From Acidobacteriota bacterium (GTDB taxonomy: Bacteria; Acidobacteriota; Vicinamibacteria; Fen-336), in assembly GCA_003223555.1 (NCBI GenBank), contig QHVM01000082.1, positions 163,762 to 227,761 of the forward strand: DNA of 64,000 nucleotides, read 5' to 3'. Below the pieces are notes generated by a model. It made no database searches. It was not told the DNA's origin and was given only the letters and a program-made list of their open reading frames with translations. Shown here in pieces: positions 5,842 to 55,110 of this stretch. How positions within the stretch are numbered: position 1 is the stretch's first letter; the number at the start of each line of letters is the position of its first letter. The translations under genes were made by a program, and so were the position numbers.

Positions 5842-6912
5842 TCAGGCCCGCACCAGCGTCGCCCCCCAGCTCATGCCGGCCCCGAAGGCCACCAGCAACA
5901 CCAGGTCCCCCGGCCGGATCCTTCCCCGCCGGGCGCACTCGTCCCACAGCAGGGGGATGGTGGCGGCGGTGGTGTTGCCGTACTTGTGGATGTTGTGGAC
6001 GACCTTGTCGTCGGGGACCCCCAGCGCCTTCTGGCAGTGCTCGTTGATCCGCCGGTTGGCCTGGTGCATGAGCACGAGCGCCACGTCGTCGATCCTCAAG
6101 CCGTTGCGGGCGAGGACCTGCTGCGCGACCTCCACCATGCGGGTGGCGGCGAGCTTGAAGACGTAGCGGCCGTCCATCACCGGGATGTGGTCGCCGCGGG
6201 CGAACTGCTCGGGGTCGGTGTAGGGCCGGTGCTTGAAGCCGGTGCCGGGCACGTAGAGCTTGTCGTAATCGGCCCCGTCGGTGCCGAGGACGGAATCGAC
6301 GATCCCGCGCGAGCCGTCCTCCTGCGCCTGCAGCACCACCGCCGCCCCCGCGTCGCCGAAGAGCACGGTCAGGTGACGGAAGCGGGAGTTCCAGGCGTGC
6401 TCGGCCGGGGTGGGCGGCACGTCCGACCGGCCGTAGAGATAATCCCAGTTGGCGGCCGAGTAGGGCATGAAGCCGCTGTGGACCTCGGCCCCCACCAGCA
6501 GCACGGTGCGGGCCAGGCCCGCCCTGACGTGGGCGTCCACGAGCTGGAGGCCGTAGAGGAAGCCCACGCACTGCTGCCGGATGTCGAAGCAGGGGACGTT
6601 CCGCAGGCCGAGCTTGGCCTGCAGCAGAGGGCCGGCGCCCGGGAAATAGTAGTCGGGGGTCATGGTGGCGAAGACCACCAGGTCCACGTCCTCCGGCGCG
6701 GTGGCCCCCTCGGCCAGGGCCCGGCGGGCGGCGGCCACTCCCAGGTCGGAGGTGGCCGTGCCGAGGTCCACGTAGTAGCGCGTCTCCACCCCGCTGCGCT
6801 CGCGGATCCACTCGTCGCTCGTGTCCATGATGCGGGCCAGCATCTGGTTGGTCACGGCATTGGGGGGGATCTCGGAGCCGCTGCCGACGATGACCGCCCG
6901 CATGAAGCGCAT
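5842..6912 (-). CDS. fabH: 3-oxoacyl-ACP synthase III (KAS III, FabH), copy 1
   Basis: N-terminus AVIVGSGSEIP...NQMLARIMDTSDEWIRERSGV; Cys/His/Asn thiolase-fold catalytic context (CSGF..., [21 protein letters not shown]). Confidence 0.88.
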   Translation of the reverse strand: MRFMRAVIVGSGSEIPPNAVTNQMLARIMDTSDEWIRERSGVETRYYVDLGTATSDLGVAAARRALAEGATAPEDVDLVVFATMTPDYYFPGAGPLLQAKLGLRNVPCFDIRQQCVGFLYGLQLVDAHVRAGLARTVLLVGAEVHSGFMPYSAANWDYLYGRSDVPPTPAEHAWNSRFRHLTVLFGDAGAAVVLQAQEDGSRGIVDSVLGTDGADYDKLYVPGTGFKHRPYTDPEQFARGDHIPVMDGRYVFKLAATRMVEVAQQVLARNGLRIDDVALVLMHQANRRINEHCQKALGVPDDKVVHNIHKYGNTTAATIPLLWDECARRGRIRPGDLVLLVAFGAGMSWGATLVRA

Positions 6913-8130: not shown

Positions 8131-9940
8131 GCGCGCCGCCCTCCTGGCCACCCTGCTCCTCGCCGCCGCCCTGCGTTTCGCCGGGCTGGGATGGGGCCTG
8201 CGCCAGCCGCCGCATCCCGACGAGGCCGTGTTCCTCGACAACGTGGCCCTCATGATCCGCAGCGGCGACCTGGACCATCGCTACTACCAGTACCCCGGCC
8301 TCTTCTTCTACATGCTGTATCCGCTCGTCCGCCTCCTGCCCCACGATCCGCCCGGACCGGCGGCCTACCTGGCCGCCCGCGCCCTGGTGGCCGCCTTCGG
8401 CGTGGCTTCGTGTGCGCTGGCCGCTCGGCTGGCCCGGGAGGTGGCCTCCCCCCGGGCGGGGCTGCTGGCGGCCCTGCTGCTGGCCGTCTCGCCGGTGGCG
8501 GTGGAGACGGCCCACATGGTCCGTCCCGACGTGGTGCTGCAGGCCCTCTGCCTGGCCGTGCTCATCGCGCTCGTCCGGGTCGGCGTCACTCTTCGCGGCG
8601 ACCTGCTCTCCGGTCTCGGCCTCGGCCTGGCGGGGGCGGTGAAGTTCTCGGCGGTGTTCCTCGTGCCCTCCTACCTCGCCCGGCGCCTCGTCGCGCCCGG
8701 ACCCCGGTGGCGGGGCCTGCTCGCCACGGCGGGCGTGGCCCTGGCGGCTTTCGTCCTGGCCAGCCCCTACGCGGTCCTGCACATGGCCGACTTCGTCGCC
8801 GGGGTGAGGGCCCAGGTCGGCTACCACTACCAGGAGCGGGGCCTGAGCCCGGTGTCCTATCCGCGCATGCTGCTCTTCTACCTGGAGGTCTGGCCCAAGG
8901 CCCTCGGATGGCCGGCGGTGCTGCTGGTCCTGGCCGCGCTGCCGTCCGCGTTCCGCGCCTGGCGGATATGGATCCCTTTCCTGTTTCTTCCCGCGACGGC
9001 CACCGCGGTGCTGGCCACCTCGGACATCCGCCACGACCGCTTCCTGCTGCCTGCGCTCGGCGTGGGGTTCGTCCTGGCCGGCCTGGGGGCGGAGCGGCTG
9101 GCCGGCCCGTGGCGCTTCGCCTTCCGCGCCGTCGCCGCCGTGGCGGCGGCGGTGCCGCTCGTCTCGTCGGTCGCCTACTTGCGCGGCGTGGTCGCCCCCA
9201 GCACCCGCGACCGTGTGCTCGACGCCATGGAGCCGGCCGCGCCTCGGGGAAGCCTCGTCATCTCCAGCGTCGAGCGGCTCGGCCTCGACCCCTCACGAGT
9301 CGAGGTCATGGAGATGGACCACCTGGGGCCGAGCCAGCGCGCCCAGCTCCGGGAGGCGGACTTCGTCGTGAGCACGGAGCGCGATGACCCGGCTTCCCTG
9401 GCCGGCCTCGAGAAGCTGCTGGAAACCGCGCCCGTGAACGCCTGGAACGGGCCGCGCCTCACGGTGTGGCGGGTTCCTCCCGCCCAGCGTCCCCTCCGGC
9501 GGCGCGTCCGCCTCGACCCGGCATGGCTGTCCGCCCCCGAGAACCCCGCCGAGATGCCGCTGGCCTGCGACGGCCGCGACGACACCTGGTGGCGGACCGA
9601 GGGCGTCCAGCGGCCGGGCGATTGGCTCCAGGTCAGATTGCCCGCGCCGGTCCTCCTCGACCGGATCGAGCTGGACGTCGACGGCAACGGCCGCTTCGCC
9701 GCCCGCGAGCTGCAGCTGCTCGTGTCCGCCGACGGGCGCCGCTTCGACGAGGCCCCGACGCGTCCCGGGCGGCCTCCGCTCGACGACCAGCGCGTGGAAG
9801 GCAAGAGCCACAGCCAGGTGCTGTTGCTCACGCCGCCCGCGCCGTCCCGCGCCTTTCGCCTCGTCCTCACCCGGCCTGGCGCCCATCGCTGGGGGGTGGC
9901 CGAGCTGCGGGTGGACGAGAGGGTGCCGCCCGCGCCGTAG
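8117..9940 (+). CDS. Membrane GT-C glycosyltransferase (GT39/PMT- or ArnT-like) with C-terminal discoidin/F5-8 type C-like domain
   Basis: Multi-TM N-terminal region with a DE-containing first loop (HPDEAVFLDNV). C-terminus reads ...CDGRDDTWWRTEGVQRPGDWLQVRLPAPVLLDRIELDV..., which is galactose-binding-like. Operon partner of the GT2 gene. Confidence 0.65.
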   Translation: MSCARRAALLATLLLAAALRFAGLGWGLRQPPHPDEAVFLDNVALMIRSGDLDHRYYQYPGLFFYMLYPLVRLLPHDPPGPAAYLAARALVAAFGVASCALAARLAREVASPRAGLLAALLLAVSPVAVETAHMVRPDVVLQALCLAVLIALVRVGVTLRGDLLSGLGLGLAGAVKFSAVFLVPSYLARRLVAPGPRWRGLLATAGVALAAFVLASPYAVLHMADFVAGVRAQVGYHYQERGLSPVSYPRMLLFYLEVWPKALGWPAVLLVLAALPSAFRAWRIWIPFLFLPATATAVLATSDIRHDRFLLPALGVGFVLAGLGAERLAGPWRFAFRAVAAVAAAVPLVSSVAYLRGVVAPSTRDRVLDAMEPAAPRGSLVISSVERLGLDPSRVEVMEMDHLGPSQRAQLREADFVVSTERDDPASLAGLEKLLETAPVNAWNGPRLTVWRVPPAQRPLRRRVRLDPAWLSAPENPAEMPLACDGRDDTWWRTEGVQRPGDWLQVRLPAPVLLDRIELDVDGNGRFAARELQLLVSADGRRFDEAPTRPGRPPLDDQRVEGKSHSQVLLLTPPAPSRAFRLVLTRPGAHRWGVAELRVDERVPPAP

Positions 9941-11524: not shown

Positions 11525-11533
11525 TCTCGAATG

Positions 11534-11900
11534 CGGGCGAGCTACGCTCCGCATGGGTCTTCGTCATGCGCGCTCGCGGGAATGAATCCCGCTGCGCGCG
11601 CTGAAGGAAATGCTCCGCTGCGCTCGCCCGAACGCCGGGGATCGAAGCGGTCTCGCCCTGCGGGCGAGCTACGCTCCGCATGGGTCTTCGTCATGCGCGC
11701 TCGCGGGAATGAATCCCGCGGCGCGCACTGAAGGAAATGCTCCGCTGCGCTCGCCCGAACGCCGGGGATCGAAGCGGTTTCGCCCTGCGGGCGAGCTACG
11801 CTCCGCATGGGTCTTCGTCATGCGCGCTCGCGGGAATGAATCCCGCGGCGCGCACTGAAGGAAATGCTCCGCTGCGCTCGCCCGAACGCCAGGGAACGGG
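11534..11900. repeat. Tandem array of ~127-bp repeat units (2 full + 1 partial) belonging to the dispersed GCTCCGCT-core repeat family
   Basis: Unit starts (GCGGGCGAGCTACGCTCCGCATGG...) at 11534, 11660 and 11787. Each unit carries the hairpin CGCGGG-AATGAAT-CCCGCG and the right-end motif GAAATGCTCCGCTGCGCTCGCCCGAACGCC. The small ORFs 11531..11982 are repeat artefacts. Confidence 0.85.
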
Positions 11901-11932
11901 CGAAGCGGCGCTTCCTCGCTTTGCTTGCTGCG

Positions 11933-12775
11933 CTACCGGACCGCGAAGAGCAGCAGGCCGAACGGGGCCACGGCGGCCATGATCAGTACCGGGTCGGCGA
12001 GCAGCAGAGCCTGGACGAGGAACGGAAAGGCCACCACCAGGAGGACGATCCCCGGAAGGGGTCCGGCAACCGACCCCAGCCGGCCGGCCAGCGTCTCGCG
12101 GTTTCCGGCCACGCCGCTCCTGCGCGCGACGATGGCGGCGCCGAGCAACATCGCTCCCCAGGCGATCCACGCCCGGCGAGCCGTGAAGAGCGCTTCGGCG
12201 GAGGTGGCTCGCCAGAGGACGCCCACCGCGAGCAGGGCCAGGACCGAGCCCAGGGCGAGGCCGCCGCGGCGCAGCGCCTCCCGGGTCGGGCGGCCCGATC
12301 CCGCCCACCACTCGGCGCCGAGCGTGTACGAGCCGACGATGACCGCCCAGCCCACGAAGTTGCCGACGGGCACGCCGAGCCACGCGGCCGGTGGCGTCCA
12401 CCGCCAGAGCCCGTCCCGCACCGCCACCGGCTCCATGGCCAGGTCCACCGCGATCGCGAGAAGGGCGGCCGCGAGTGCTCGTCGGGCCGGCGTGGCGCTC
12501 CCGCGGCGGACGGCCACCGCCATGGCGCACGAGATGACGGCCGCCCATACCGCTACCACGGCCAGGGGCACGCCGCCGGGGGCGACCCGCCAGGACGATG
12601 GGTACTCGTGCGCGGCGAAGGCCGCGATGGCGGCGATCTCCAGCGCGTATCCATAGGCGGCGAGGGCGAGAAGCTCTCCCGCGGCCCGCCGTCCGCCGAG
12701 GGCGCGGCGGGCGTGGATGAAGGCGAGGGCCAGTGCCGCCGGCGCGACGAGAAGCTCGTAGGCTCCCGCCGGCAA
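11933..12775 (-). CDS. Polytopic integral membrane protein (~281 aa, probable TTG start at 12775), translationally coupled to the upstream PEP-utilising enzyme gene. Possibly carotenoid-biosynthesis-associated/DUF422-like
   Basis: Hydrophobic throughout (…NFVGWAVIVGSYTLGAEWW…, …LLVVAFPFLVQALLLADPVLIMAAVAPFGLLLFAVR). In-frame TTG 5 nt after the upstream stop. Family assignment is tentative. Confidence 0.5.
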   Translation of the reverse strand: MPAGAYELLVAPAALALAFIHARRALGGRRAAGELLALAAYGYALEIAAIAAFAAHEYPSSWRVAPGGVPLAVVAVWAAVISCAMAVAVRRGSATPARRALAAALLAIAVDLAMEPVAVRDGLWRWTPPAAWLGVPVGNFVGWAVIVGSYTLGAEWWAGSGRPTREALRRGGLALGSVLALLAVGVLWRATSAEALFTARRAWIAWGAMLLGAAIVARRSGVAGNRETLAGRLGSVAGPLPGIVLLVVAFPFLVQALLLADPVLIMAAVAPFGLLLFAVR

Positions 12776-12780
12776 CCGGC

Positions 12781-15700
12781 TCAACGCCGAGCCCGTTCGG
12801 CGATCCCGAAGCCGCTCCGGCCGGCGCCCTCGTACCGGGTGAAGCTCTCGTCGAGGACCAGCCGCCAGGGCCGGCCGGCGAGATGGCGGCCGGGGCGGCT
12901 CTCGGGCTGGACGGGCACGCTCAGCGTCGAGACGACCGTGCCCCTGACGTGCAGGGCGGGACCGGCGTCGGTCGTCACCTCGAGCTCGACCGAGCGGGGC
13001 CGGCCGGCGTCCTCGACCCAGGCGTGCTCCACGCGCGTGACCCGCTCGAGCGCTCCTCCGCGCCAGAGGAAGCCCCCCTCCACCATCCGGCCGCGCAGGC
13101 ACACCGCCAGCGCGTGCAGCGCGACGTCCTCGCCCAGGCGCACGGTGAAGAGGCCCCAGTGGTCGGCGGCGTCCCAGTCGCGGCGGCCGGCGGAGTGGTC
13201 GCGGCTCCCCGTTCCCACGAAGGTGAAGCGCCGCCCGTCCACCACGACCTCGCCCTCCGCCGTCCCCGACTGCTCGACGTGATGGGCGCCGAGCGGCTCC
13301 AGGAAGCGTCGGGTGTCCTCGTCGACGATGGCGCACAGGTCGACGGCCGGGGTCGTCGGCCGGAAGGCGAGGTCGATCGTCGCCTCCACGGTGCGCGGCG
13401 CGAGCAGCACCGGGAGGGGGCCGGGCGGGAAGGCGTCGGCCTCGTGCTCGGCGAGGCGCGTCGCCGCCCGCAGGCGCGGCGGCCTCCAGCCCCCGGCCAG
13501 GCCCGCCACGGCCAGCGCGCCCTCGTCCCGGCGGCCGTCGCCGCGCTCCAGCGCGAAGAGAAGCTTCCCGTCGGGCAGGAGAAGGGCGAGGACCCCCTCG
13601 CCCCGTCCGCCCGCCTTGAGCCCGAGAGAGCACACGATGCCGAGACGGCTCGTGGGGTCGAAGAGGTTGAAGTACACGCTCTCCCGCGCCAGGGGGTGAT
13701 CGTCCAGCGCGGGGAAGTCCTCTCCGGGCGCCGGAGGCCAGGCGAGGGCCCCGCGCGCGCTCGCGCCCGCTTCGGCCGGCCACGGCACGATCCGTCCCGC
13801 GCCGCCGTCGACCAGGATGCGCTGGCCGCCGCGGATGCGGCGCGTGGCATCGCGCACGTCCACGACGCACGGCACGCCCAGCTCCCGGGCCACGACCGCG
13901 CCGTGCGAAAGCAGGCCCCCCATCTCGGCCACCGCCCCGGCGGCGGAGGCGAGCAAGGGGCCGAGGGCCGCGTCGAGCACCGGCGCCACCAGCACCTCGC
14001 CCGGCTCGATCCGCGCCGTCTCGCCCTGGCGCACCACGCGCGCGGGCCCGACGCCGATGCCCGCGCTCACGCCGAGGCCGGCCAGGTCGCCTTCCGCCGG
14101 GGGCGCCGCCCCGGGGGCCGAGAAGTCGACCTCCCGCGGCGCGGCCAACGCGGCTTCGCGCTCCCAGCGGCGCCGGCGGCGCGCGACCGCCGGCCGGGAC
14201 ACGGCCGCCCCCCGCAGGGCCGCGCCCAGCTCGCCCGCGGTCAGGAAGAAGACGTCGTCCTCGGCCGCCAGCGCGCCGGTGGCGGCCAGCCGGCTCGCCG
14301 CCGCGCGCGCGATGTCCCGGCCGTGCTGGACGAGGACGACGGCGAGCGACTTCGTCGCTTCCCGCCGGGTCACCCATTCCCGCGCCGAGGCCAGGCCGCG
14401 CCGGAAGAGGGCCGCCCGCAGCGGCCCCAGCCGCGAGGCGATGGCCGCCTCGTCCGCGCGTCCGAGCTGCCCGGCGGCCCGGGCCCGGAACCCCGGCGGC
14501 CGCGCCGAGGACAGCCGCGCCTGCAAGGCGGCGAGCAGCGGCGAAGGATCGTCCTCCCAGGTGGGCGAGCGCAGCTCTCCTTCGGAGAGGCCGCGATGGC
14601 CCCACCGGCGCAGGAGATCGGCCAGGCGGGCGCGCAGCGCGGGCGGCGCGTCGCCCCGGCGCAGCGCCGCGGTGGCTCGAGCCGTCGGCTGGGCGAGCCA
14701 GGCCACCCATTCCAGATGCGCGGGCGCCTCCCCGGCGAGGACTTCCAGCGCCGCGACCGGGGCCGCGCTGTCGAGGCCGGCCAGGCCGGTCACGAGGCGG
14801 TTCACGCGAGGCGCGGCCTCGCCCGGCGCGAGGAGCGCGAGCAGCCGGGCCAGCAGCGCCAGCCGCACGCCGCACGCGCCCGAAGTGGCGACGTGGGCGG
14901 TGGCGACGAGGAGGCCGGTCCGCTCGAGGCCTTCGAGCATTGCGGCGAGCTCGTCCGCGCGGGCGGCCGCGACCGCTGCCCGTGACGGCCGGCGGGCGAG
15001 GGCCTGCTGCGCAGAGGCGATCTCTTCGGGCAGCCCTCGCGCCATCACCCGCAGCCGGGCCAGCACCCTGGCCAGCCGCGGCCAGGCGCTGACGGGCAGA
15101 CGGACCCGCTGCGCGGCGCCGCCGCCGAGGACCAGGCGCTCGACGTCGTCGCTCGCGAGGCCGGGCAGGCCGCGGCCGATCTCGAGGCAGAGGGAGAGGT
15201 TGAGGTAGACGCGCTCGCGGTGCAGCACCAGGAACGGTGGAGCATCGGCGGGAAGCAGCCCGGCTCGGCTCGCCACGTCGCGGAAGGCCTGCTCGAGGAG
15301 CGCCACCACCGTCGAGGCGGTCAGGGGGGTCACCGGATCGGGCAGCACCTCGCCGACGTTGGCGCGCGTGAGGCGCCGCAGGCGAGGGTCGCGGGGCGCC
15401 TCGCCCCCGGCGGTGATGGGCCGGGACTGCAGCAGCACGACGCCGCCCGAGCTGACCGCCCATTCCACGTCCTGGGGTCCGCCCAGCAGATCCTCGACCC
15501 GGCGCGCCAGGCGGAAGACGGTCGCCAGGTCGGGCGCGGGGAGGCTTCCCGTGGCCGGTCCCTCCCGTAGCGCTCCCGTCTCGCGGTCGAGGACGTATCG
15601 GTCGGGTCGCACCGAGCCCGATACCACCGCCTCGCCCCGGCCCGGGTGGGACTCGACGAGCATCGCGTCCGGCTCGGCGGGATGGCGGGTGAAGACGACC

Positions 15701-25289: not shown

Positions 25290-25494
25290 ACGATTCCTCG
25301 CCTCGCGCCCGGCGGCAAGCCGGAGCGCGCGGGCGCCCCCGGGACTCCAGGCCTCATGGCCCCGGGTCACCCAGGATGCACCGCAGCGACTACCGGCTCT
25401 CACCGAAATTGACTGGCTCGCGGACGGCCCGCCCGGCCGCCGAACGTGCTCGCTCCGCTTCCGGGCGCCGTCCCTTTCATAAGGCTGGATTGAA

Positions 25495-33003: not shown

Positions 33004-33167
33004 CCGGGAACAGCTCCGGCGCCCGGCTCCTGGTCTTTTGACGCAGAGGTCGCAGAGAACAGAAAGAGGCCGCGGAGAACAGATAGGGGTCTCTTTCCAG
33101 CGCCGAGCCGGCGTTTTCTTTCCCCTCTGCGTCCTCTGCGTTAAAGAGCCGGTCGGGCCGGGGCGGG

Positions 33168-41149: not shown

Positions 41150-41412
41150 GGGCCGGGGGGCAGGGCCAGGGCGCGGTCGCGGCAGGCCGGCGAGCAGAAG
41201 TGCATCTGGCGGCCGCCGACGACCGCGCTCACCGCGCGCTCCCGGGGGAGGAAGGTGTTGCAGATGCGGTCCCGCACCATGTCGACGCCGGGGGCGGGCG
41301 TGGCGGCCGGCGGCTCGCGCAGGCCCTCGACCAGGCCGGCCACGAACCGCAGCCCGATCCGGACGAGGAAGAGCGCGACCAGGAAGCGGACGAAGGCGAC
41401 GATGAGGATCAC
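41146..41412 (-). CDS. Membrane-anchored YHS/TRASH-domain (metal-binding zinc-ribbon-like) protein. Start taken at GTG 41412, which gives a GTGA overlap with the upstream TPR gene
   Basis: One TM helix (VILIVAFVRFLVALFLVRIGLRFVAGL), then VRDRICNTFLPRERAVSAVVGGRQMHFCSPACRDRA (YHS pattern C-x2-…-FCS-x2-C). GGAGG lies 5 nt upstream of the GTG. The longer ATG-41505 ORF would overlap the TPR gene by 97 nt. Confidence 0.55.
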   Translation of the reverse strand: MILIVAFVRFLVALFLVRIGLRFVAGLVEGLREPPAATPAPGVDMVRDRICNTFLPRERAVSAVVGGRQMHFCSPACRDRALALPPGP

Positions 41413-42026
41413 GACGGCCTCCGGCTGGCGCGCACCTGGTCGATCTGCTCGCGCAGGCCCCGGAGCTGCGGATCGTCCGGATAGCGCTTGATCAGCCCTT
41501 CCCACACCGCCACCGCGTCCTTGGGCCGGCCGGTCTGCATGAGCGCGATACCCTTGTTGTAGAGCGCCTTCTTGTGGCCGGGGTCGCTGGCCAGGGCCCG
41601 GTCGAACTCGGCCAGCGCCTCGCCGGCCTTGCCGGCGCTGACGAGGCAGGCCCCCAGGTCGACCCGCACGTCGTTGTTGTCGGGCGCGAGCGCGAGAGCC
41701 TCCCGGTACCAGCGGGCCGCCTCGTCGAACTGGCTGTGATCCATGAGCAGGTTGCCCAGCTCGATCCGGGCCTGGACGTTTGCCTTCTCGCGCGCGGCCA
41801 GGGACTCAAGCGCCCGCACCTCGTTGGGGTCCGGGGTCGCGGCCGCGCCGGCTCGGGCGCGTCCGGCCGCCGGCGCCGGCGCCACCTCGGCCTCGGCCGT
41901 CGGCGCGCCCGCGCCCGGCGGCGGCACGCGCGACTCCGCGTGGTCGCCGAGGCCCGCCGCCATGTAGCCGAGCACGAAGCCGAAGACGATGCCGGCCACC
42001 GCGTAGATCATCGGGTCTTTATTCAT
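41409..42026 (-). CDS. N-terminally membrane-anchored TPR-repeat protein, first gene of the BMC operon
   Basis: TM helix MIYAVAGIVFGFVLGYMAAGL, an Ala/Pro linker, then TPR helices (ARIELGNLLMDHSQFDEAARWYREALALAPDNNDVRVDLGACLVSAGKAGEALAEFDRALASDPGHKKALYNKGIALMQTG…). Confidence 0.7.
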   Translation of the reverse strand: MNKDPMIYAVAGIVFGFVLGYMAAGLGDHAESRVPPPGAGAPTAEAEVAPAPAAGRARAGAAATPDPNEVRALESLAAREKANVQARIELGNLLMDHSQFDEAARWYREALALAPDNNDVRVDLGACLVSAGKAGEALAEFDRALASDPGHKKALYNKGIALMQTGRPKDAVAVWEGLIKRYPDDPQLRGLREQIDQVRASRRPS

Positions 42027-42425
42027 GCGGATGCGGCGCGCTCCGCTCCGCGCATGAAGTCATCAAGCGCACGCGGCCGGGGTGAACCCGTCCGCGTGCG
42101 GCAGAGGAAACGCTCCGCTGCGCGCGCCGGACGTTCATGCCGGACATGCTCCGGTCCACGGCATGCGGATGCGGCGCGCTCCGCTCCGCGCATGAAGTCA
42201 TCAAGCGCACGCGGCCGGGGTGAACCCGTCCGCGTGCGGCAGAGGAAACGCTCCGCTGCGCGCGCCGGACGCTCGCGCCGGAGAGGTGTGAATGCGCGCA
42301 CTTCGCTCCGCGTAATCCGAATGCGGCACGCTCCGCTTCGCGCGCCGGACGCTCACAATCAAGATGCTGCTCGCCCTGCGCTGCGCGCGCCGAGCGTTCA
42401 TGCCGGAAGCGTCTCCTGTCCACGG
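42024..42425. repeat. Repeat array filling the ~400-nt spacer upstream of the BMC operon: two tandem 118-bp units plus 1-2 degenerate units of the GCTCCGCT-core family
   Basis: Units begin CATGCGGATGCGGCGCGCTCCGCTCCGCGCATGA at 42024 and 42142. Each has the hairpin GCACGCGG-CCGGGGTGAACCCGTC-CCGCGTGC and the right-end motif GAAACGCTCCGCTGCGCGCGCCGGACG. Further partial copies run to 42425. ORFs 42023..42301 and 42201..42401 are repeat artefacts. Confidence 0.85.
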
Positions 42426-43553
42426 CTACCGGCGGTCTAGGGGGACGTACACGACGTCGCGCGGGCCGGTGTACTCGCTCTCCGGGCGGATGAGGCGGTT
42501 GTTGGCGAGCTGCTCGAGGACGTGGGCCGTCCAGCCGGCGATGCGGGACACGGCGAAGACGGGCGTGAAGAGGTCGGTGGCGATCCCGAGGCTGTGGTAG
42601 ACGGAAGCGGAGTAGAAGTCGACGTTGGCGTTCAGGCCCTTCTGGGCGCGCATGAGGCCTTCGATCTTCTCCGAGAGCTCGAACCACCGCCGGTCCGCCC
42701 CTGCTTCCCCGAGCTGGCGCGACATCCGCCGCAGGTGGGTCGCCCGGGGGTCTTCCGTCCGGTAGACCGCGTGGCCGAAGCCCATGATCTTCTTCTTCGC
42801 CCCGAGGGCCTCGCGCAGCCACGGCTCGGCCCGCTCGGGCGAGGCGATCTCCTCCAGCATCTTCATCACCGCCTCGTTGGCCCCGCCGTGAAGCGGGCCC
42901 TTGAGGGTGGCCAGGGCGGAGGTGATGGCGCCGTGCAGGTCGCCCAGGGTGGAGGCGGCGACGCGGGCGGCGAAGGTCGAGGCGTTGAACTCGTGGTCGG
43001 CGTGCAGGACGAGGGCCATGTCCATGGCCCGCTCGGCGGTGGCGGGCGGCCTCTCCCCGGTGAGCATGAACAGGAAGTTGGCGGCGTGGGAGAGCGCGGG
43101 ATCGGGAGGCAGGACCGGCTGGCCTTTCCTGACCCGCTCGACCAGCGCGACGAGGGTGGCCATCTGGGCGGTGAGCCGCAGCGCCTTGCGCGCGTTGGCG
43201 GCCGGGGTCTCGTTGCCCGCGTCGGGATCGAAGGCTCCCAGGGCGGAGACGAGCGTCCGCAGCGACGTCATCGGGTGCGTGGCCGGGGGCAGCAGGCGGA
43301 GGAGGGCCGGCACGGGCGCGGGCACGGCGCGCTCCCGCACCAGCTCGGAGGTGAAGGCGGCCAGCTCCGCCCGGCGGGGAAGCTGGCCCCGGTGGAGCAG
43401 GAAGGCGACCTCCTCGAAGGTGGAATGCTCGGCCAGCGCGTGGATGTCGATGCCCCGGTAGGCGAGGAGGCCCCGCTCCCCTTCGATGGAGCAGATGGCG
43501 CTCTCGCCCGCCACGACGTTGCGCAGCCCGGTGCCCGGCTTCACGGTGTCCAC
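42426..43553 (-). CDS. Citrate synthase (~376 aa, probable GTG start at 43553 preceded by GGAGG)
   Basis: GLRNVVAGESAICSIEG…, GHAVYRTEDPRA and …DFYSASVYHSLGI are citrate synthase signatures. The longer ORF N-terminus (to 43709) is not conserved. Confidence 0.85.
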   Translation of the reverse strand: MDTVKPGTGLRNVVAGESAICSIEGERGLLAYRGIDIHALAEHSTFEEVAFLLHRGQLPRRAELAAFTSELVRERAVPAPVPALLRLLPPATHPMTSLRTLVSALGAFDPDAGNETPAANARKALRLTAQMATLVALVERVRKGQPVLPPDPALSHAANFLFMLTGERPPATAERAMDMALVLHADHEFNASTFAARVAASTLGDLHGAITSALATLKGPLHGGANEAVMKMLEEIASPERAEPWLREALGAKKKIMGFGHAVYRTEDPRATHLRRMSRQLGEAGADRRWFELSEKIEGLMRAQKGLNANVDFYSASVYHSLGIATDLFTPVFAVSRIAGWTAHVLEQLANNRLIRPESEYTGPRDVVYVPLDRR

Positions 43554-43677
43554 TCGCGGCCTCCGCGCGATAAGTGAACCATTATTCAGTCGCGCCGCGG
43601 GCGGCGTCAAGGCGCGCGGTCTGGGCGCCCGGATCGGCCAGCGGTAAGATGCGGCAGCGTCCGGGAGGAGGCCCGCC

Positions 43678-44142
43678 ATGATCAAGCTCGAGCGCATCCT
43701 CGTCCCCACCGACTTCTCGGAGAGCGCCCGCCACGCCCTCAGCTACGGGATCTCCTTCGCCGAGGAGTTCGAGGCCGAGCTGCTCCTGCTCCACGTCGTG
43801 GAGACGATCCCGGTCGGCTACGCGAGCGACCTCTTCCCGGTGCCGATGGCCGAGGTTTTCCAGGAGATGTCCGGCTACGCCAAGGCCGAGCTGGCCAAGC
43901 TGGCCGCCCTGGCCCGGGAAAGGAAGGTCGCGGTGCGCGAGATGGTGACCCAGGGCAAGCCCTCGGCCGAGATCGTCCGCGTGGCCCGGGAGGAGACCGC
44001 GGACATGATCGTCCTCGGCACCCACGGCACCGGAATCCTGGACAAGGCGCTCTTCGGGTCGACCACCGAGCGGGTGGTGCGCAAGGCGCCCTGCCCGGTC
44101 CTCACCTGCCGCCTCTCCGAGCACGAATTCGTTAACGGGTGA
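43678..44142 (+). CDS. Universal stress protein (UspA family)
   Basis: MIKLERILVPTDFSESARHAL…LLLLHVVE…MIVLGTHGTGILDKALFGSTTERVVRKAPCPVLT. Confidence 0.85.
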   Translation: MIKLERILVPTDFSESARHALSYGISFAEEFEAELLLLHVVETIPVGYASDLFPVPMAEVFQEMSGYAKAELAKLAALARERKVAVREMVTQGKPSAEIVRVAREETADMIVLGTHGTGILDKALFGSTTERVVRKAPCPVLTCRLSEHEFVNG

Positions 44143-44283
44143 ATGCGGCGCGCTCCGCTACGCACTCTTCGTCATCCAGCGTCTCGCCTCGGAGTGAATC
44201 CTCGGCGAGACGACCAGCGAAATGCTCCGCTCCGCGCGCCGGACGCTTCATGCCCGAGGACGTGACTCGCGACGCGCCGGTCG
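44143..44283. repeat. Single copy of the GCTCCGCT-core intergenic repeat family
   Basis: GAATGCGGCGCGCTCCGCTACGC…CTTCGTCATC…hairpin CTCGCC-TCGGAGTGAATCCTCG-GCGAG…GAAATGCTCCGCTCCGCGCGCCGGACGCTTCATGCC. Confidence 0.8.
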
Positions 44284-45294
44284 CTAGTCCCAGGCCAGGC
44301 CGGACCAGCGCGCGAGCACGGTGCCCACCGTGAATCCCGCCCCCACCGAGGCCATGAGGACGAGGTCCCCGCGGCGCAGCCGGCCCTCGTCGAGCGCGGT
44401 GCCGAGCGCGAGGGGGATGGTGGCGGCGGTCGTGTTGCCGTAACGGTGGATGTTCTTCAGCACCTTCGACTCGGGGAAGCCCAGCCGCTCGCTGGCCCCG
44501 TCGATGATGCGGACGTTGGCCTGGTGGGCCACGAAGAGGTCGACGTCGGCGGGGACGAGCCCGTTGCGGTCGAGCAGGTGCTTGGTGGCCTCGGCGAACT
44601 TCCGCACCGCGTACTTGAAGACGTGGGCGCCGTCCTGGCGGACGTAATGCAGCCGCTTCTCCACCGTCTCGTGGGAGGGCGGCTGGGCGCTGCCGCCGGC
44701 CGGCATGTAGAGGTGGCAGCTTCCCGCCCCGTCCACCTCGTTGTAGAAGTCGATGATGCCGGTGTCGTCCGCGGACGGCTCGACCAGCACCGCCCCCGCG
44801 CCGTCGCCGAAGAGCACGCAGGTGGTGCGGTCCTGCATGTCCAGGATCGAGGTCATCACGTCGGCCCCGACCACGAGGACCTTGTCGTGGGCGCCGGTCT
44901 CGACGAACTGCGCCCCCAGGGTCAGGGCGTAGAGGAAGCCGGAGCAGGCGGCCGAGATGTCGAAGCCCCACGCCCGGGTGGCCTTGAGCTTGTCCTGGAG
45001 GACGCAGGCGGTGGCGGGGAAGACGGTGTCGGGGGTCACCGTCGCCACCACGATGAGGTCCAGCTCGGCCGCGTCGAGCCCCCGGCGTTCGAGGCACTCC
45101 CGGACCGCCTTCGTGGCCAGCTCGCTCGTCGGCGTGCCCGGCTCGGCCCACCGCCGCTGCTCGATGCCGGTCCGGGTCCGGATCCACTCGTCGTTGGTGT
45201 TGACGATCTTCTCGAGGTCGGCGTTGGTGACCACGCGCTCGGGGACGTAGCGCCCCAGCGACGTGATGCGCGCCCGGCGGTTCGCCCGCGGCAT
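44284..45294 (-). CDS. fabH: 3-oxoacyl-ACP synthase III (FabH), copy 2
   Basis: [35 protein letters not shown]…, [18 protein letters not shown] and [14 protein letters not shown]. Confidence 0.88.
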
Positions 45295-50122: not shown

Positions 50123-51159
50123 CGAGCCCGCCTCGCCGCCGCCAGGCGCTCCTCGGCGATGCGGTCGGCCAGGCGGTGGGGCGCCACGCCTTCCTCCCGC
50201 GCCCGCCGCCACAGCGCGGCCAGCCGCTCGCCGATCTGCTCGACGCGTCGCGTGACGCCGGCCTCGTCCGTCTCGCCCTGCTCGTAGAGGAGGCTCAGCA
50301 GCCCGCCCGCGTTGACGACGTAGTCGGGGCCGTAGAGGATGCCGCGCTCGTGCAGCGCGTCGCCGTGGCGCGGCTCGGCGAGCTGATCGTTGGCCGCCCC
50401 CACCACCGCCCGGCACCGCAGGCGGGGCAGCGCGGCGTCGTCGATGACGCCGCCGGCGGCGTTGGGTGAGAGCACGTCCGCCTCGAGGTCGCAGATCGCC
50501 TCCGGCGGCGCGACCTCCGCCTTCAGCTCCGCCGCCGCCCGCTCGGTCCGGGACGGGTCGACGTCGGCCACCGTGAGCCGCACCGCCGCCCGGGCCAGCA
50601 TCCGCGCCAGGCGGTAGCCGACCTGCCCCAGGCCCTGCACGGCGACGTGCAGGCCACGGAGGGGCCGGCCGAGCTCCGCGGCGGCGGCTCGGATCGACGA
50701 GAAGACGCCGAGCGCGGCCAGCTCGGCCGTGTCGAGCTTCGCCCCCGGCGGGGTGTGGCTCACGTGGCGGGTGAGCCGGGACATCACCGCGATGTCGCGG
50801 CCGTCGATCCCCATGTCGGCCCCGGTCTGGAAGCGGCCGCCCAGGCGGTCGATCGCGCGCGCGTAGGCGGCGAGGAGCGCGCGGGTCTTGTCGCGGCCGG
50901 GATCGCCGAGGATGACCGCCTTGCCGCCGCCCCGCGGCATCTCGGCCAGCGCCGCCTTGTACGTCATGGCGCGGGAGAGGCGTAGCGCGTCGATCGCCGC
51001 CTCCTCGAGGCCGGGGTACGGGCGCATCCGGGTCCCGCCCACGGCCGGCCCCAGCGCCGTGTCGTGGATGGCGATCACGGCCCGGAGCCCGGCCTCGGCG
51101 TCCTGGACGAGGATGACTTCCTCGTGGCCCATCTCCCGGGCCAGCGCGAGGGCGGTCAT
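50119..51159 (-). CDS. Glu/Leu/Phe/Val-family amino-acid dehydrogenase (leucine/valine dehydrogenase-like)
   Basis: EVILVQDAEAGLRAVIAIHDTALGPAVGGTRMRPY…GGGKAVILG…VQGLGQVGYRLARML. Start at ATG 51159; the rest of ORF 50119..52062 is artefactual. Confidence 0.8.
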   Translation of the reverse strand: MTALALAREMGHEEVILVQDAEAGLRAVIAIHDTALGPAVGGTRMRPYPGLEEAAIDALRLSRAMTYKAALAEMPRGGGKAVILGDPGRDKTRALLAAYARAIDRLGGRFQTGADMGIDGRDIAVMSRLTRHVSHTPPGAKLDTAELAALGVFSSIRAAAAELGRPLRGLHVAVQGLGQVGYRLARMLARAAVRLTVADVDPSRTERAAAELKAEVAPPEAICDLEADVLSPNAAGGVIDDAALPRLRCRAVVGAANDQLAEPRHGDALHERGILYGPDYVVNAGGLLSLLYEQGETDEAGVTRRVEQIGERLAALWRRAREEGVAPHRLADRIAEERLAAARRAR

Positions 51160-51207
51160 GGAAGCCACGGAGTATACTCTGCCGTTCCCTTGCCCTGGAG
51201 GCTCGCG

Positions 51208-51921
51208 GTGAAGGGAAGCCTGTCCCAGGGTGCGCTCCCGGTCGTCCTGGGCCGCCTCTACGTCGAGCGCCGCTCCGGCCTGCTCCACCTCAAGCGCGGT
51301 GCGGAACGGCGGAGCGCCCGCTTCCGCAAGGGACACATCGTCCACGCCGACACCAACGCTGCCGAGGACCACATGGGCGAGGTGCTGGTGCGGACCGGGC
51401 TGCTCAGCCAGGCCGACCTCGACCGGGCCACCGCCCGCGTGCTGCGCGAGCGAAAGCGGCTGGGCCAGGTACTTCAGGAGCTGCGGATCCTCGACGAGCA
51501 CCTGCTCGAGGACGCCCTCGCCCTGCACGTGCAGGAGGTCCTGCGCAAGGCGTTCCGGTGGGAGGACGGCGAATGGTCCTTCGAAGAGCAGGAGGTGGAG
51601 ACCCCGCTGCAGGAGGACGCGACGCTGAAGGTCTTCACCGGCGACGTGATCCTGGAGGCGGCCCGCAGCGTGGCCGACCCCGCCGCGGTGCGGCACGCGC
51701 TCGGCGACCCCGACCGACCGGTCGTGCTGAGCGCCGACCCGGTGCTGCGCTTCCAGCAGATCGCCCTCAACGAAGCCGAGAGCGAGGTGCTGGGCCGGGT
51801 GGACGGCACGCGGACCGTACGGCAGCTCGTCTCGGCGCTCTCCCTGCCGGCGGAGGAGACCGAGCGGAGCCTGCTCGGACTCGTCTGCCTCGGCATGGTG
51901 GAGCCTTCGCCCGGAACCTGA
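51208..51921 (+). CDS. DUF4388 (PATAN-like) domain protein, GTG start preceded by GGAGG
   Basis: LSQGALPVVLGRLYVERRSGLLHLKRGAERRSARFRKGHIVHADTN… is homologous in pattern to the N-terminus of 9983..11524. Confidence 0.6.
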   Translation: MKGSLSQGALPVVLGRLYVERRSGLLHLKRGAERRSARFRKGHIVHADTNAAEDHMGEVLVRTGLLSQADLDRATARVLRERKRLGQVLQELRILDEHLLEDALALHVQEVLRKAFRWEDGEWSFEEQEVETPLQEDATLKVFTGDVILEAARSVADPAAVRHALGDPDRPVVLSADPVLRFQQIALNEAESEVLGRVDGTRTVRQLVSALSLPAEETERSLLGLVCLGMVEPSPGT

Positions 51922-51924
51922 GGT

Positions 51925-52040
51925 GTTGACGGGGCAGCGTTCGGCGAGCGAAGCGGAGCATCTCCCTGACCGCGCGAAGCGGGATCCACTCCCGCAAGCG
52001 CGCATGGGCGAAGCTTCGTGCGGAGCGAAGCTCGCCGCAT
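51925..52040. repeat. Single inverted-orientation copy of the GCTCCGCT-core repeat family
   Basis: Reverse complement reads GAATGCGGCGAGCTTCGCTCCGCACG…CTTCGCCCATGCGCGC…hairpin GCGGG-AGTGGAT-CCCGC…GAGATGCTCCGCTTCGCTCGCCGAACGC. Confidence 0.75.
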
Positions 52041-52060
52041 TCGAGCACGAGGAGCCTGAC

Positions 52061-52399
52061 ATGGAGAGACTGAGGACGTTCGAGGAGTTCTGGCCCTTCT
52101 ACGTGTCCGAGCACAGCCGGAGGACCACCCGGGCCCTCCACTTCGCGGGGACGACGCTGGTGCTGGGGGCGGTGGTGGCGGCGGCGCTGCGCTCGCCGTG
52201 GTGGCTGGCCGCGGCGCCCGTCCTCGGCTACGGGCCGGCCTGGATCGCACATTTCTTCGTCGAGAAGAACCGTCCGGCCACCTTCACCTACCCGCTGTGG
52301 TCGCTGCGCGGGGACTTCCGGATGTGGCGGCTGATGCTGCTGGGACGGATGGAGCCGGAGGTGGAGCGAGCGGTGCGGCTCTATCCCCGTGCCGGCTGA
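52061..52399 (+). CDS. DUF962 (Mpo1/YGL010w-like) small membrane protein
   Basis: MERLRTFEEFWPFYVSEHSRRTTRALHFAGTTLVLG…WIAHFFVEKNRPATF (DUF962 pattern). Confidence 0.65.
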   Translation: MERLRTFEEFWPFYVSEHSRRTTRALHFAGTTLVLGAVVAAALRSPWWLAAAPVLGYGPAWIAHFFVEKNRPATFTYPLWSLRGDFRMWRLMLLGRMEPEVERAVRLYPRAG

Positions 52400-55012: not shown

Positions 55013-55110
55013 CCGAATGCGGCGCGCTCCGCTTCGCGCGCCGAACACTCAGAATCGAGAGATTGCGCGCCAGTGCTTCGCTTCGCGCGCCGAACGCCCG
55101 TTTGACGCGC
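55013..55110. repeat. Degenerate copy of the GCTCCGCT-core repeat (both end motifs present, hairpin absent)
   Basis: GAATGCGGCGCGCTCCGCTTCGCGCGCCGAACACTC…GCTTCGCTTCGCGCGCCGAACGCCC. Confidence 0.65.

Follow-up and report, generated by a model that had tools for sequence, protein, structure and literature searches.

A structured intergenic repeat of about 118 nt, apparently undescribed, in soil Vicinamibacteria

Results

Repeat copies in the window

Between a TPR gene, the first of a TPR / aldolase / BMC / EutN cluster, and a citrate synthase gene on the same strand lies an array of complete and partial copies of a repeat that recurs elsewhere in the window, as the whole 64-kb stretch of DNA analysed is called here (Table 1). 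The window contains 12 occurrences of the core motif of the repeat, GCTCCGCTNCGC, where 0.55 would be expected; 0 of 100 shuffles reached 12. A covariance model (CM) built on 27 copies, five of them from the window, matched seven full units of ~118 nt at four loci (E = 1e-19 to 1e-24), scores that are partly by construction for those window units that had served as seeds. Two short forms with an internal deletion were matched as well. The preliminary description had counted six loci, including a short motif at 25440-25470. This motif was not detected by the CM at E <= 10 even with the filters off, so it was dropped as a family member and five loci are left. All copies are intergenic, as had been stated.

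The first unit of the 42-kb array has the left (L) end CGGATGCGGCGCGC and the right (R) end GCTCCGCTGCGCGCGCCGGACG plus TTCATGCCGGAC, with an apical hairpin GCACGCGG-C-CGGG-GTGAA-CCCG-T-CCGCGTGC between them; the second unit ends in the common right extension CTCGCGCCGGAG. The description of this array as two tandem units of ~118 nt was correct as to the units, whereas the tandem period is 138 bp (1.9 units at 42024-42282 according to TRF), made up of the 118-nt unit and a 20-nt junction. The junction resembles the right flank of the array plus the CAT of the TPR start codon, which indicates that the duplicated unit took in flanking DNA. The mosaic that follows begins with a degenerate L fragment, GTGAATGCGCGCACTTCGCTCCGCG, and contains a short form (42317-42363) in which the L end is fused to the R end without the hairpin; this is followed by the spacer module CTCACAATCAAGATGCTGCTCGCCCT and another R module, GCGCTGCGCGCGCCGAGCGTTCATGCCGGAAG. 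The same module order recurs in L215 and at other loci.

The tandem array reported near 11534-11900 was confirmed by TRF (11532-11895). Its units belong to a subfamily with the terminal helix CGGGCGAGC/GCTCGCCCG, and it is located between two convergent genes, DUF4388-TPR (+) and a Caroten_synth membrane protein gene (11933-12790, -). Its earlier placement upstream of an operon start is thereby refuted. The array at 42027-42425 does lie upstream of the TPR/BMC genes, but it follows citrate synthase just as directly, and a link of the elements to operon starts is not supported. The single unit at 44 kb, with its tail, fills the entire spacer between Usp and FabH, and the Usp stop codon, TGA, consists of the first bases of the element. 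The inverted unit (terminal helix CGGCGAGC/GCTCGCCG) is flanked by a DUF4388/PatA_N gene (51064-51921, +) and an Mpo1-like gene (52061-52399, +). The short form at 55 kb starts 3 nt past the stop codon of a TonB-dependent receptor gene; it consists of an L end fused to an R end, a spacer module and a second R module, and is 85% identical to 42317-42375 (repeat family D3).

Table 1. Coordinates of the repeat copies in the window and of the genes bordering the 42-kb array
Feature	Position	Strand	Evidence and remarks
Three tandem 127-bp units	11528..11912	+	TRF 2.9 copies, 98% matches; CM 92-101 bits
Full unit	11528..11646	+	CM
Full unit	11655..11773	+	CM
Full unit	11782..11900	+	CM
TPR gene	41409..42026	-	Pfam TPR families; start codon 1 nt from array L end
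Full unit 1 of 42-kb array	42028..42145	+	CM 116.6 bits, E = 1.1e-24
Junction between tandem units	42146..42165	+	ATGCTCCGGTCCACGGCATG; TRF period 138
Full unit 2 of 42-kb array	42166..42283	+	CM 114.5 bits, E = 3.1e-24
Mosaic of partial modules	42284..42410	+	CM match 42289-42363, 45.4 bits; repeat families D3, D4
Short form with internal deletion	42289..42407	+	CM match 42289-42363
Citrate synthase gene	42426..43709	-	Pfam PF00285, E = 1e-135; stop codon abuts array right side
Single unit plus 25-nt tail	44140..44283	+	Unit 44140-44258; CM 109.9 bits
Single inverted unit	51926..52043	-	CM 99.1 bits
Internally deleted short form	55014..55108	+	CM 51.8 bits, E = 6e-10

Distribution of the family

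Soil metagenomes, three Vicinamibacteria MAGs and the window together yielded 78 distinct copies. The family occupies at least 80 dispersed loci in several genomes, beside genes that are unrelated to one another. Among exact 22-mer matches, genuine copies were present only in three Vicinamibacteria/Acidobacteria MAGs. Matches in Sphingomonadales were rejected, as they share one alignable, coding-like flank, and in the other matches outside Acidobacteriota the rest of the element was absent. Source records of homologues of the neighbouring proteins name Vicinamibacteria. The 8.5 kb fetched from a 1.43-Mb contig (ERZ25039600:contig_9584) contained no copy. As far as sampled, the family is thus confined to a clade of soil Vicinamibacteria (Acidobacteriota). 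Rfam 15 gave zero matches for the whole window at the gathering threshold and only chance-level matches (E >= 0.17) for 41990-42460 at E <= 10, and neither Rfam nor repeat-focused full-text searches gave a description of the family or, more widely, of repeats in Vicinamibacteria. The repeat family is real and apparently undescribed.

Fold and covariation

The family consensus is a single rod, which can form from one DNA strand or from RNA of either strand. At its base an 8-9-bp terminal helix pairs the two ends (CGGCGCGC with GCGCGCCG), a covarying pairing that had been overlooked. Past this helix come two symmetric 3x3 internal loops of conserved sequence (TNC/TNC and TCC/TCC) with GC pairs between them, then a variable spacer and a 12-bp apical hairpin closed by an RTRRA pentaloop. 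Folding z-scores were -1.5 to -4.5 on both strands. The internal CTTCGTCAT that had been listed as shared by the units is only weakly conserved, its TC alone being nearly invariant.

Covariation was measured for the 78 copies on a MAFFT alignment made without structure. Paired cells amounted to 92.4%, compared with 82.4% in shuffles, and only 30-49% were paired in slid controls. Changes on both sides were seen in 19 of 28 pairs (201 cells vs 55 expected), a value that 0 of 500 shuffles reached. The copies contain 44 distinct apical stems and 22 variants of the terminal helix; examples are CGGTGCGC/GCGCACCG, CACTGCGC/GCGCAGTG and TGTCCCGC/GCGGGACA. The hairpin stems quoted in the preliminary description are as described, and their compensatory pattern holds throughout the collection. 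Mean column entropy was 0.17 bits in the internal loops, 0.31 in the terminal helix, 1.07 in the apical stem and 1.4-1.6 in the spacers. Many independent double changes have left the helices paired, and the unpaired loops are constant. These results strongly support the view that the secondary structure is under selection or is required, as had been proposed.

Separate REP-like hairpins within the L and R modules were rejected: the covariation partner of column 26 is column 90, not column 13. A small peptide read from the invariant L-end ATG was likewise rejected: reading frames and lengths vary among copies, and the stems covary as nucleotides.

Insertion, loss and array variation

Comparison with related genomes shows that the copies behave as insertions. 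In the window and in L001 the Usp-FabH spacer contains the element and spans 141 bp; it measures -4 to 42 bp in four orthologous loci (L223, L219, L220, L222) and 9 bp in the P0002 contig (from gene coordinates alone). The PatA_N-Mpo1 spacer is 139 bp long in the window. At the same site a relative with 95% protein identity (L224) has a 63-bp remnant from which the interior is deleted, and in two others (L225 and L226, with 87% and 80% protein identity) the site is empty, with spacers of 25 and 18 bp. Copies decay by internal deletion between repeated modules.

Neither of these two sites, when compared with its empty orthologues, showed a duplication of 3 bp or longer; duplications of 1-2 bp are possible. 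Side-by-side inspection of 34 flank pairs showed no consistent repeat. Partial duplications of flanking DNA were seen at L181 (30-nt repeat) and at L217 (19-24-nt repeat). Terminal inverted repeats together with target-site duplications had been named as findings that would speak for a mobile MITE and against selection on structure. The ends are indeed inverted repeats, and they covary, showing that they are kept as structure rather than as sequence; duplications of 3 bp or longer did not appear at the two sites compared.

Two orthologous pairs show how copies change in place. L027 and L181 are ~87% identical overall and carry a copy at the same site; the 16 differences between the copies fall in spacers, N positions or the loop, except for one compensatory G-C to A-T pair. 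The copies of L180 and L210 are identical in 118 of 118 bases between flanks that are ~87% identical, a finding more in keeping with strong constraint, gene conversion or site-specific re-insertion than with simple selfish decay. The array between the TPR and citrate synthase genes consists of one, two or three units in contigs whose flanks are 99-100% identical. These differences in unit number could partly be artefacts of short-read assembly, as the unit of 138 bp is close to the assembler k-mer of about 141. Several contigs end inside a unit.

Genomic context and orientation

Copies occupy short spacers at the 3' ends of genes, in either orientation. Among 38 loci with both neighbours called (by a GC3-based ORF filter, not a gene finder), 14 were convergent, 11 sense co-directional, 9 antisense co-directional and 4 divergent. 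For the co-directional loci this means no strand bias relative to the flanking genes, a point that the preliminary description had raised. The 105 neighbouring ORFs belong to diverse housekeeping genes, with no recurrent transposase among their top families, and the scan of ~48 ORFs of the window gave no match to a transposase or integrase family. The sole inverted pair of copies, 1.5 kb apart at L137, encloses ORFs whose translations, judged by eye, are DapA-like and GAF-like, and was therefore rejected as a composite transposon or REPtron.

Mismatches in the helices were balanced overall between G.T and A.C (15 vs 23). When they were read in the predicted transcript, the G.U type prevailed by 16 to 6 (sense 8:5, antisense 1:8; Fisher p = 0.031). 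Transcription-coupled C-to-T mutation is another possible explanation of this asymmetry, which was calculated from 22 mismatches with the help of crude gene calls. Within 41300-44400 no terminator-like site overlapped the elements. The apical hairpin is followed by CGRCAGAGGAAACG, and the copies scanned contain no terminator-type T-run. The apical stem was also considered as a guide, in the logic of IS200/IS605 or bridge RNAs. This was rejected: the longest match between a stem arm and its own flanks was 5.63 (null 5.37 +/- 0.10), and the excess is provisionally attributed to tandem neighbours rather than to a guide.

Discussion

The family is best explained, and in our judgement probably, as a new structured repeat of the REP/ERIC/MITE kind: a non-coding, non-autonomous element of ~118 nt whose spread or persistence depends on its fold. 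Of the two options offered in the preliminary description, a structured RNA and a REP/BIME-like element, the latter fits best, in view of the location at gene 3' ends in both orientations, the presence or absence of copies among relatives, and the mosaics and arrays. The element is three to five times as long as a REP and lacks the GTAG tag, which speaks against a REP-type reading; against mobility it can be said that a candidate mobilising enzyme is not among the scanned ORFs and that the insertion behaviour is deduced from sequence comparison.

A dedicated, strand-specific cis-acting RNA is unlikely. In this case a specific protein or nuclease would bind to the rod, whose internal loops are conserved and whose pentaloop (GUGAA) is GNRA-like, and would thereby govern the termination, antitermination, processing or decay of many transcripts in Vicinamibacteria; dispersal would be secondary to this host function. 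Such a role would agree with the unpaired nucleotides being the most conserved ones while the stems covary, with the mostly downstream placement and the G.U bias in the predicted transcript, and with the two orthologous pairs, one changed at ~13% genome divergence only in spacers and by one compensatory pair, the other unchanged between diverged flanks. It is difficult to reconcile with orientation, which is about 50:50 relative to transcription: every second transcript would contain the complementary strand, in which the loops read UUCAC and the internal loops GGA/GNA. Moreover, the entire hairpin has been lost at the PatA_N-Mpo1 site in the 95%-identical relative and both sites compared are empty in others; the neighbouring genes have no function in common, and variable tandem arrays and mosaics typify repeats rather than regulators. 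Taken with the absence of an Rfam match and the overall balance of G.T and A.C mismatches, these observations count against the RNA option of the preliminary description.

Recognition at the level of DNA appears quite improbable. Here two direct copies of GCTCCGC(TNCGC), ~72 bp apart, would be bound by a nucleoid or regulatory protein, or the extruded hairpin would serve as a recombination site of the attC or dif/Xer type. The most conserved bases do form the direct repeat GCTCCGC in both arms, wobble mismatches lack an overall strand asymmetry and placement is independent of orientation, and an imperfect palindrome with extrahelical bases that are conserved is also a feature of attC sites. 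Binding to the duplex, however, would not need covariation of the terminal helix and the apical stem, and some relatives lack or have lost the copies. An integron context is likewise missing, the neighbours being housekeeping genes in both orientations with no integrase in the window or among the 105 neighbours, and the ends (right GCCGRAC, left ATGCGG) do not match RYYYAAC/GTTRRRY. Finally, neutral tandem-duplication debris, its complementarity kept by quasi-palindrome template switching with neither selection nor mobility, is disfavoured as very improbable: partial flank duplications (L181, L217 and the array junction in the window) and frequent arrays and internal deletions would suit it, but template switching would erase the mismatched internal loops, which are the best conserved part, local duplication does not explain at least 80 dispersed loci beside unrelated genes, and sites that are empty in relatives hold a complete, consensus-like unit here.

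Among known elements, the ERIC (IRU) sequences of Enterobacteriaceae are imperfect palindromes of ~127 bp, non-coding and strictly intergenic, which lie in both orientations near gene ends and form one long hairpin. ERIC variants arise by internal deletion or insertion, reports on these elements describe compensatory changes and orientation-dependent mRNA effects, and ERIC is not known to have a transposase. The Vicinamibacteria repeat is like ERIC in size, in being non-coding, in its location at gene ends in both orientations, in its one-hairpin fold and in its internal-deletion variants. It is an analogue only, in a different phylum, set apart by its host and by the lack of an Rfam match, and it differs in its hypervariable apical stem with a conserved pentaloop, its symmetric internal loops of conserved sequence and its tandem arrays. 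The general class of small bacterial intergenic repeats has been reviewed (PMC3184786).

With REP, BIME and REPIN sequences and their RAYT (TnpA_REP) transposases the family shares GC-rich palindromes downstream of genes, mosaic clusters and an apparent lack of target duplication, as well as, putatively, recognition by structure and conserved unpaired bases, TnpA_REP requiring a bulge (PMC8266576, PMC3733652, PMC3116915). REPs are located between unidirectional and convergent ORFs (PMC3733652), and the repeat shows the same preference, with 14 convergent, 20 co-directional and 4 divergent loci. A REP is a single hairpin of 20-40 nt with a 5' GTAG (or CGTC) tag and a REPIN consists of two inverted REPs, whereas the present element is one nested rod of ~118 nt whose arms are not hairpins themselves. 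It has no GTAG. The reverse complement of its right end starts with CGTY, reading CGTC-CGGCGCGC in copies that end in CCGGACG and CGTT-CGGCGCGC in those that end in CCGAACG; the CGTC tag is therefore present in some copies only. No RAYT gene was seen among the scanned ORFs.

MITEs such as Correia/NEMIS and RUP resemble the repeat in their length of 100-150 nt, in complementary ends that give a long hairpin in the transcript, in gene-adjacent insertion and in presence or absence between strains. They differ in having sequence-conserved TIRs of 15-30 bp that match a parent insertion sequence, and target-site duplications. The ends of the Vicinamibacteria repeat are 8-9 bp long and subterminal, preceded by CGRATG and followed by RACGCTCGCGCCGGAG, and exist in 22 covarying variants; the fetched loci, ~1.1 Mb in all, showed no parent insertion sequence with the same ends. 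BOX elements of pneumococcus and MIRU-type repeats are similar in their L, hairpin and R organization with extra R modules and in module or unit numbers that vary between strains, but are unrelated in sequence and host and are not defined by a covarying terminal helix. Sites of the attC type (e.g. VCRs) are imperfect palindromes of ~60-140 nt that follow stop codons, carry extrahelical bases and are recognised as folded single strands. The repeat shares with them the palindrome length, the location at stop codons and structural conservation with extrahelical bases. Unlike them, its copies are dispersed in both orientations outside any integron array, with no integrase family match in the scanned ORFs and with ends that deviate from the R''/R' core consensus. 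The lack of duplication and the dependence on structure would also suit PATEs derived from IS200/IS605. The left flank is AT-rich, with T T W W W C C before CGRATG and no fixed tetranucleotide, a composition that may reflect stop and start codons.

For the REP/ERIC/MITE-like repeat that we favour, spread may proceed through recognition of the folded form by an enzyme acting in trans, the best candidate being a single-strand-DNA HUH tyrosine transposase of the RAYT/TIRYT type. TnpA_REP needs conserved mismatches (a bulge) in the REP hairpin (PMC8266576), and TIRYT tyrosine transposases are encoded in Acidobacteria (PMC3733652). Resident copies are probably co-transcribed with their neighbours as a stable stem-loop; with a predicted energy of about -50 to -70 kcal/mol, the rod could, as a 3' or intercistronic stem-loop, affect mRNA decay or processing. 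A more far-reaching and unlikely proposal is that the rod is the substrate of a structure-specific HUH-type single-strand-DNA transposase or of an RNA-binding protein that reads the TCC/TNC loops and the RTRRA pentaloop. This would be a long-lived, vertically inherited partnership of repeat and protein, comparable to REPIN-RAYT, with a different, far larger and modular substrate, and the rod would also act as a transcript-level control element at more than 100 gene ends.

Vicinamibacteria are among the most abundant soil bacteria and have barely been cultured. For this group the repeat family provides a clade marker and a source of strain-level length polymorphism, and it probably causes contigs to break and arrays to collapse when soil metagenomes are assembled. 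Its hypervariable paired stems and invariant mismatched loops form a clean natural data set on the requirements of the putative structure-reading protein. The copies can also reshape gene boundaries: in the window one supplies the stop codon of Usp and another lies directly against the start codon of the gene that opens the TPR/BMC cluster.

Copies in the window and anatomy of the unit

A dispersed repeat family had been claimed in the preliminary description, and the core of this claim proved to be real. The 12-mer GCTCCGCTNCGC occurs 12 times in the window (G+C content 72.7%) against 0.55 expected occurrences, and tandem arrays were reported by Tandem Repeats Finder. A covariance model, seeded with 27 copies and run without filters, detected seven full units with E-values between 1e-19 and 1e-24, although five of the seeds were from the window and the matches to these units are partly by construction. 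All window copies are intergenic. The short motif at 25440-25470, also listed previously as a family member, gave no match in the unfiltered covariance-model search and was not counted.

Repeat features detected in the window
Feature	Position	Strand	Size	Method
Tandem array	11532-11895		2.9 units of 127 bp	Tandem Repeats Finder
Tandem array	42024-42282		1.9 units of 138 bp	Tandem Repeats Finder
Full unit	11528-11646	+		covariance model
Full unit	11655-11773	+		covariance model
Full unit	11782-11900	+		covariance model
Full unit	42028-42145	+		covariance model
Full unit	42166-42283	+		covariance model
Full unit	44140-44258	+		covariance model
Full unit	51926-52043	-		covariance model
Truncated form	42289-42363			covariance model
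Truncated form	55014-55108			covariance model

In the short forms 55014-55108 and 42317-42363 an internal deletion fuses the left (L) end to the right (R) end, as in the comparison locus L224, and a recurrent spacer module and a second R module then follow; the element family is thus modular and mosaic. Directly 3' of the stop of ORF 22-1161, the sequence GGGCGCGCCGCATCGCGCGGCCC (1160-1185) includes a reversed 12-nt L-end match (GATGCGGCGCGC); this site, with no covariance-model detection, is either a remnant or a chance match.

The unit spans about 118 nt, from CGRATGCGG to CGCCGGAG. Its boundaries were set by comparing loci L180 and L210, which are identical at 118 of 118 positions, ending exactly after CGCCGGAG, between flanks of about 87% identity. 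In 5' to 3' order it consists of a lead-in (CGRATG), the 5' arm of a terminal helix (CGGCGCGC), an internal loop (TNC), GC pairs, an internal loop (TCC), GCG pairs, a variable spacer of about 8 nt, a conserved segment (TCATCAAGC), an apical hairpin (8-bp variable stem, 1x1 mismatch, CGGA, loop RTRRA, TCCG, stem), a variable spacer of about 5 nt, a conserved segment (GGARA), CGC pairs, an internal loop (TCC), GC pairs, an internal loop (TNC), the 3' arm of the terminal helix (GCGCGCCG) and a tail (RACGCTSGCGCCGGAG). RNAalifold predicted this arrangement as a rod, and single copies were predicted to fold in the same way on either strand (-49 to -74 kcal/mol, z-scores -1.5 to -4.5). The apical hairpin had been recognized in the preliminary description; the pairing of the two ends had been missed.

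Covariation and conservation

A two-ended pattern matched at least 120 stretches in metagenome contigs; 82 distinct full-length copies were gathered in all, 78 of which were aligned with MAFFT without using structure. In this alignment 92.4% of cells were paired compared to 82.4% in shuffles, and changes on both sides were found in 19 of 28 pairs (201 cells, 55 expected). None of 500 shuffles reached the observed covariation values, and sliding the partners by 1-3 columns reduced pairing to 30-49%. The aligned copies carry 44 variants of the apical stem and 22 of the terminal helix, such as CGGTGCGC/GCGCACCG, CGGCACGC/GCGTGCCG, CACTGCGC/GCGCAGTG, TGTCCCGC/GCGGGACA and CGGGCGAGC/GCTCGCCCG, and in 13 copies the column 26-90 pair has switched to A-T in place of G-C, irrespective of terminal-helix subfamily. 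The suggested selection on secondary structure is supported by this covariation.

The most conserved positions are the unpaired internal loops, with a mean column entropy of 0.17 bits, compared to 0.31 in the terminal helix, 1.07 in the apical stem and 1.4-1.6 in the spacers. This is the reverse of neutral decay. A purely mutational "palindrome correction" could also keep the arms complementary, but it would remove mismatches, and the mismatched internal loops are the best conserved parts. So clean a separation of covarying helices from invariant mismatched loops is indicative of a specific putative partner.

Loci L027 and L181, about 87% identical across 8 kb, share one copy at the same site. 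The 16 differences in its 111 nt fall in the spacers, two N positions and the first loop base, and include one additional compensatory apical-hairpin pair (GGGA/TCCC to GGAA/TTCC); no change was found in the terminal helix, internal loops, L or R modules. Together with the identity of the whole L180 and L210 units despite diverged flanks, this shows that selection or gene conversion preserves some copies at their sites; other copies decay, for example that in L224. A diverged relative of the element, with a GTCAA apical-hairpin loop and a flanking 19-24-nt direct repeat (GCGTCCTCGCTCCGACCTA), lies within the BMC gene cluster of a related genome (L217 446-563, soil contig GX_farmland_Scaff2282343).

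Insertion and growth of arrays

The element behaves as an insertion. The Usp-FabH spacer is 141 bp long and filled by the element in the window and in the 96% identical contig L001, and it measures -4 to 42 bp in relatives with 80-89% Usp identity. In one of these comparison loci (L223) the two stop codons overlap (GACTAGTCC), and in the window the first bases of the element form the Usp stop TGA (TGAATGCGG). Similarly, the PatA_N-Mpo1 spacer is 139 bp with the element in the window, and 25 bp (L225, 87%) or 18 bp (L226, 80%) without it; L224 (95% protein identity) carries at this position, between the same flanks, a remnant that lost 76 internal nt, its R end being fused to the final 8 nt of the L end. 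The filled/empty comparisons at these two spacers and the flank pairs inspected (34) revealed no target duplication of 3 bp or longer.

Among contigs whose flanks are 99-100% identical, the citrate synthase-TPR spacer varies in length: 181 bp with one unit in L003, 399 bp for the window, 445 bp in both L001 and L005, and 582 bp with three units in L002. Since array junctions hold copies of flanking DNA, the arrays have expanded by local duplication, although some length differences may be assembly artefacts because 138-bp units are at the resolving limit of short-read assemblers. Partial flank duplications also lie beside copies in L181 (30 nt) and L217 (19-24 nt). In L181 (~9010-9220) the 30 nt, which stem from the 3' end of the coding sequence of the gene on the right (CTGACCAGCTTGCTGACGCCCGGCTCCTCC), are repeated left of the element, and this partial tandem duplication, which takes in the element, is absent from the orthologous L027 3150-3360. 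Tandem arrays of 2-3 units occur also at other loci and in other genomes (metagenome and MAG loci L160, L171, L211, L213, L039, L034). Short-read assemblies are apparently broken by the family, as several contigs terminate within a unit.

Genomic context

With our GC3-based ORF filter both neighbours were called at 38 of 81 element loci: 14 convergent, 11 co-directional with the element sense, 9 co-directional with the element antisense and 4 divergent. The element thus favours gene 3' ends, without orientation preference. Usually a stop codon lies 1-4 nt from its L end, or a divergent start codon a few nt away, and 43 of 81 copies have a stop triplet within 14 nt (background 19%), a proximity largely forced by the orthologous empty spacers spanning just 0-25 bp. 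The left flank is AT-rich at -10 to -6, and there may be a preference for AT-rich targets.

The proposed location of arrays upstream of operon starts was not upheld: the array at 11528 is between convergent genes, and that at 42027 is inside a co-directional gene string that is contiguous in relatives. In L222, 4 bp separate citrate synthase from the next genes, those for the small protein and the aldolase, which in relatives stand ahead of the BMC genes. The elements of region 41300-44400 contain no pattern resembling a terminator or a promoter. The TPR gene and the array (41409-42425) are both extra in the window lineage relative to L222, L220 and L217, where the genes for the small protein, aldolase, BMC-H and EutN come 4-143 bp after citrate synthase; in L219 a TPR gene adjoins Usp, and the fetched stretch has no BMC or citrate synthase genes.

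Helix mismatches are balanced overall (15 G.T, 23 A.C). Split by flanking-gene direction, small numbers were obtained: 8 G.T and 5 A.C in sense-only copies, 1 G.T and 8 A.C in antisense-only copies (Fisher p = 0.031), hence 16 G.U against 6 A.C in predicted transcripts (binomial p = 0.052). This split suggests joint transcription of copies and their neighbours and a role of the fold in RNA, whichever strand is transcribed, but the same pattern would be expected from transcription-coupled C-to-T mutation on the non-template strand. The "structured RNA" envisaged previously is unlikely as a dedicated strand-specific gene.

Host range and nature of the element

When the exact 22-mer GARAYGCTCCGCTNCGCNCGCC was scanned across 185,579 species-representative genomes, genuine copies were found in three MAGs only: Acidobacteria bacterium AA35 (at least 13 loci), Vicinamibacteria SMAG_U14493 (at least 10 copies) and Vicinamibacteria SMAG_U3907. 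Other matches were rejected because the rest of the element was absent; those in Sphingomonadales shared an alignable, coding-like flank. Homologues of neighbouring proteins were from sources named Vicinamibacteria, and soil metagenomes contain contigs that match the window with 99-100% identity around the TPR gene.

The element is best described as a new family of small dispersed repeats, structured and of the REP/BIME-ERIC-MITE kind, yet a member of none of these; the earlier reading "REP/BIME-like, not neutral junk" is supported. It is too long for a REP and lacks the GTAG tag. A MITE is contradicted by the lack of long sequence-conserved terminal repeats, of target duplications of at least 3 bp at the two tested sites and of a parent insertion sequence in about 1.1 Mb of fetched loci, and an attC site by the lack of integron context and core sites. 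The family is not present in Rfam. It is real, well defined and of a familiar kind, apparently undescribed, and it visibly remodels gene ends in an important soil lineage.

In behaviour the element is closest to ERIC, and in recognition logic to REP/RAYT, in which the HUH enzyme requires conserved hairpin mismatches (PMC8266576). An HUH enzyme acting on single-stranded DNA would be the most economical candidate for mobilizing it, because RAYT-like TIRYT transposases, with repeat families of their own, are known from Acidobacteria (PMC3733652). The 105 neighbouring ORFs matched 133 Pfam families, HrcA, ATP synthase and glutamine synthetase among them, with no recurrent transposase among the top families listed, and no transposase or integrase family was matched among about 48 window ORFs scanned.

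Other features of the window

A second, unrelated palindromic repeat (TTTGACGCAGAGGTCGCAGAG...CTCTGCGTCCTCTGCGTTAAAG) occupies a convergent intergenic spacer at 33030-33145. Its motif CCTCTGCG(N)CCTCTGCGTTAAA was also found near element copies in the metagenome loci L182 and L203, thus it is probably another dispersed family of these genomes. An Lhr-type helicase (1201-5813, +) extends across two overlapping frames, 1201-3669 and 2682-5813, its WH_Lhr domain being broken at ~2800-2820 beside an 8-bp tandem repeat (2802-2825); the split is either a frameshift, a pseudogene or a sequencing error. Two FabH (KAS III) paralogues, 5842-6912 (-) and 44284-45294 (-), are 71-80% identical in patches at the nucleotide level (repeat families D8 and D15).
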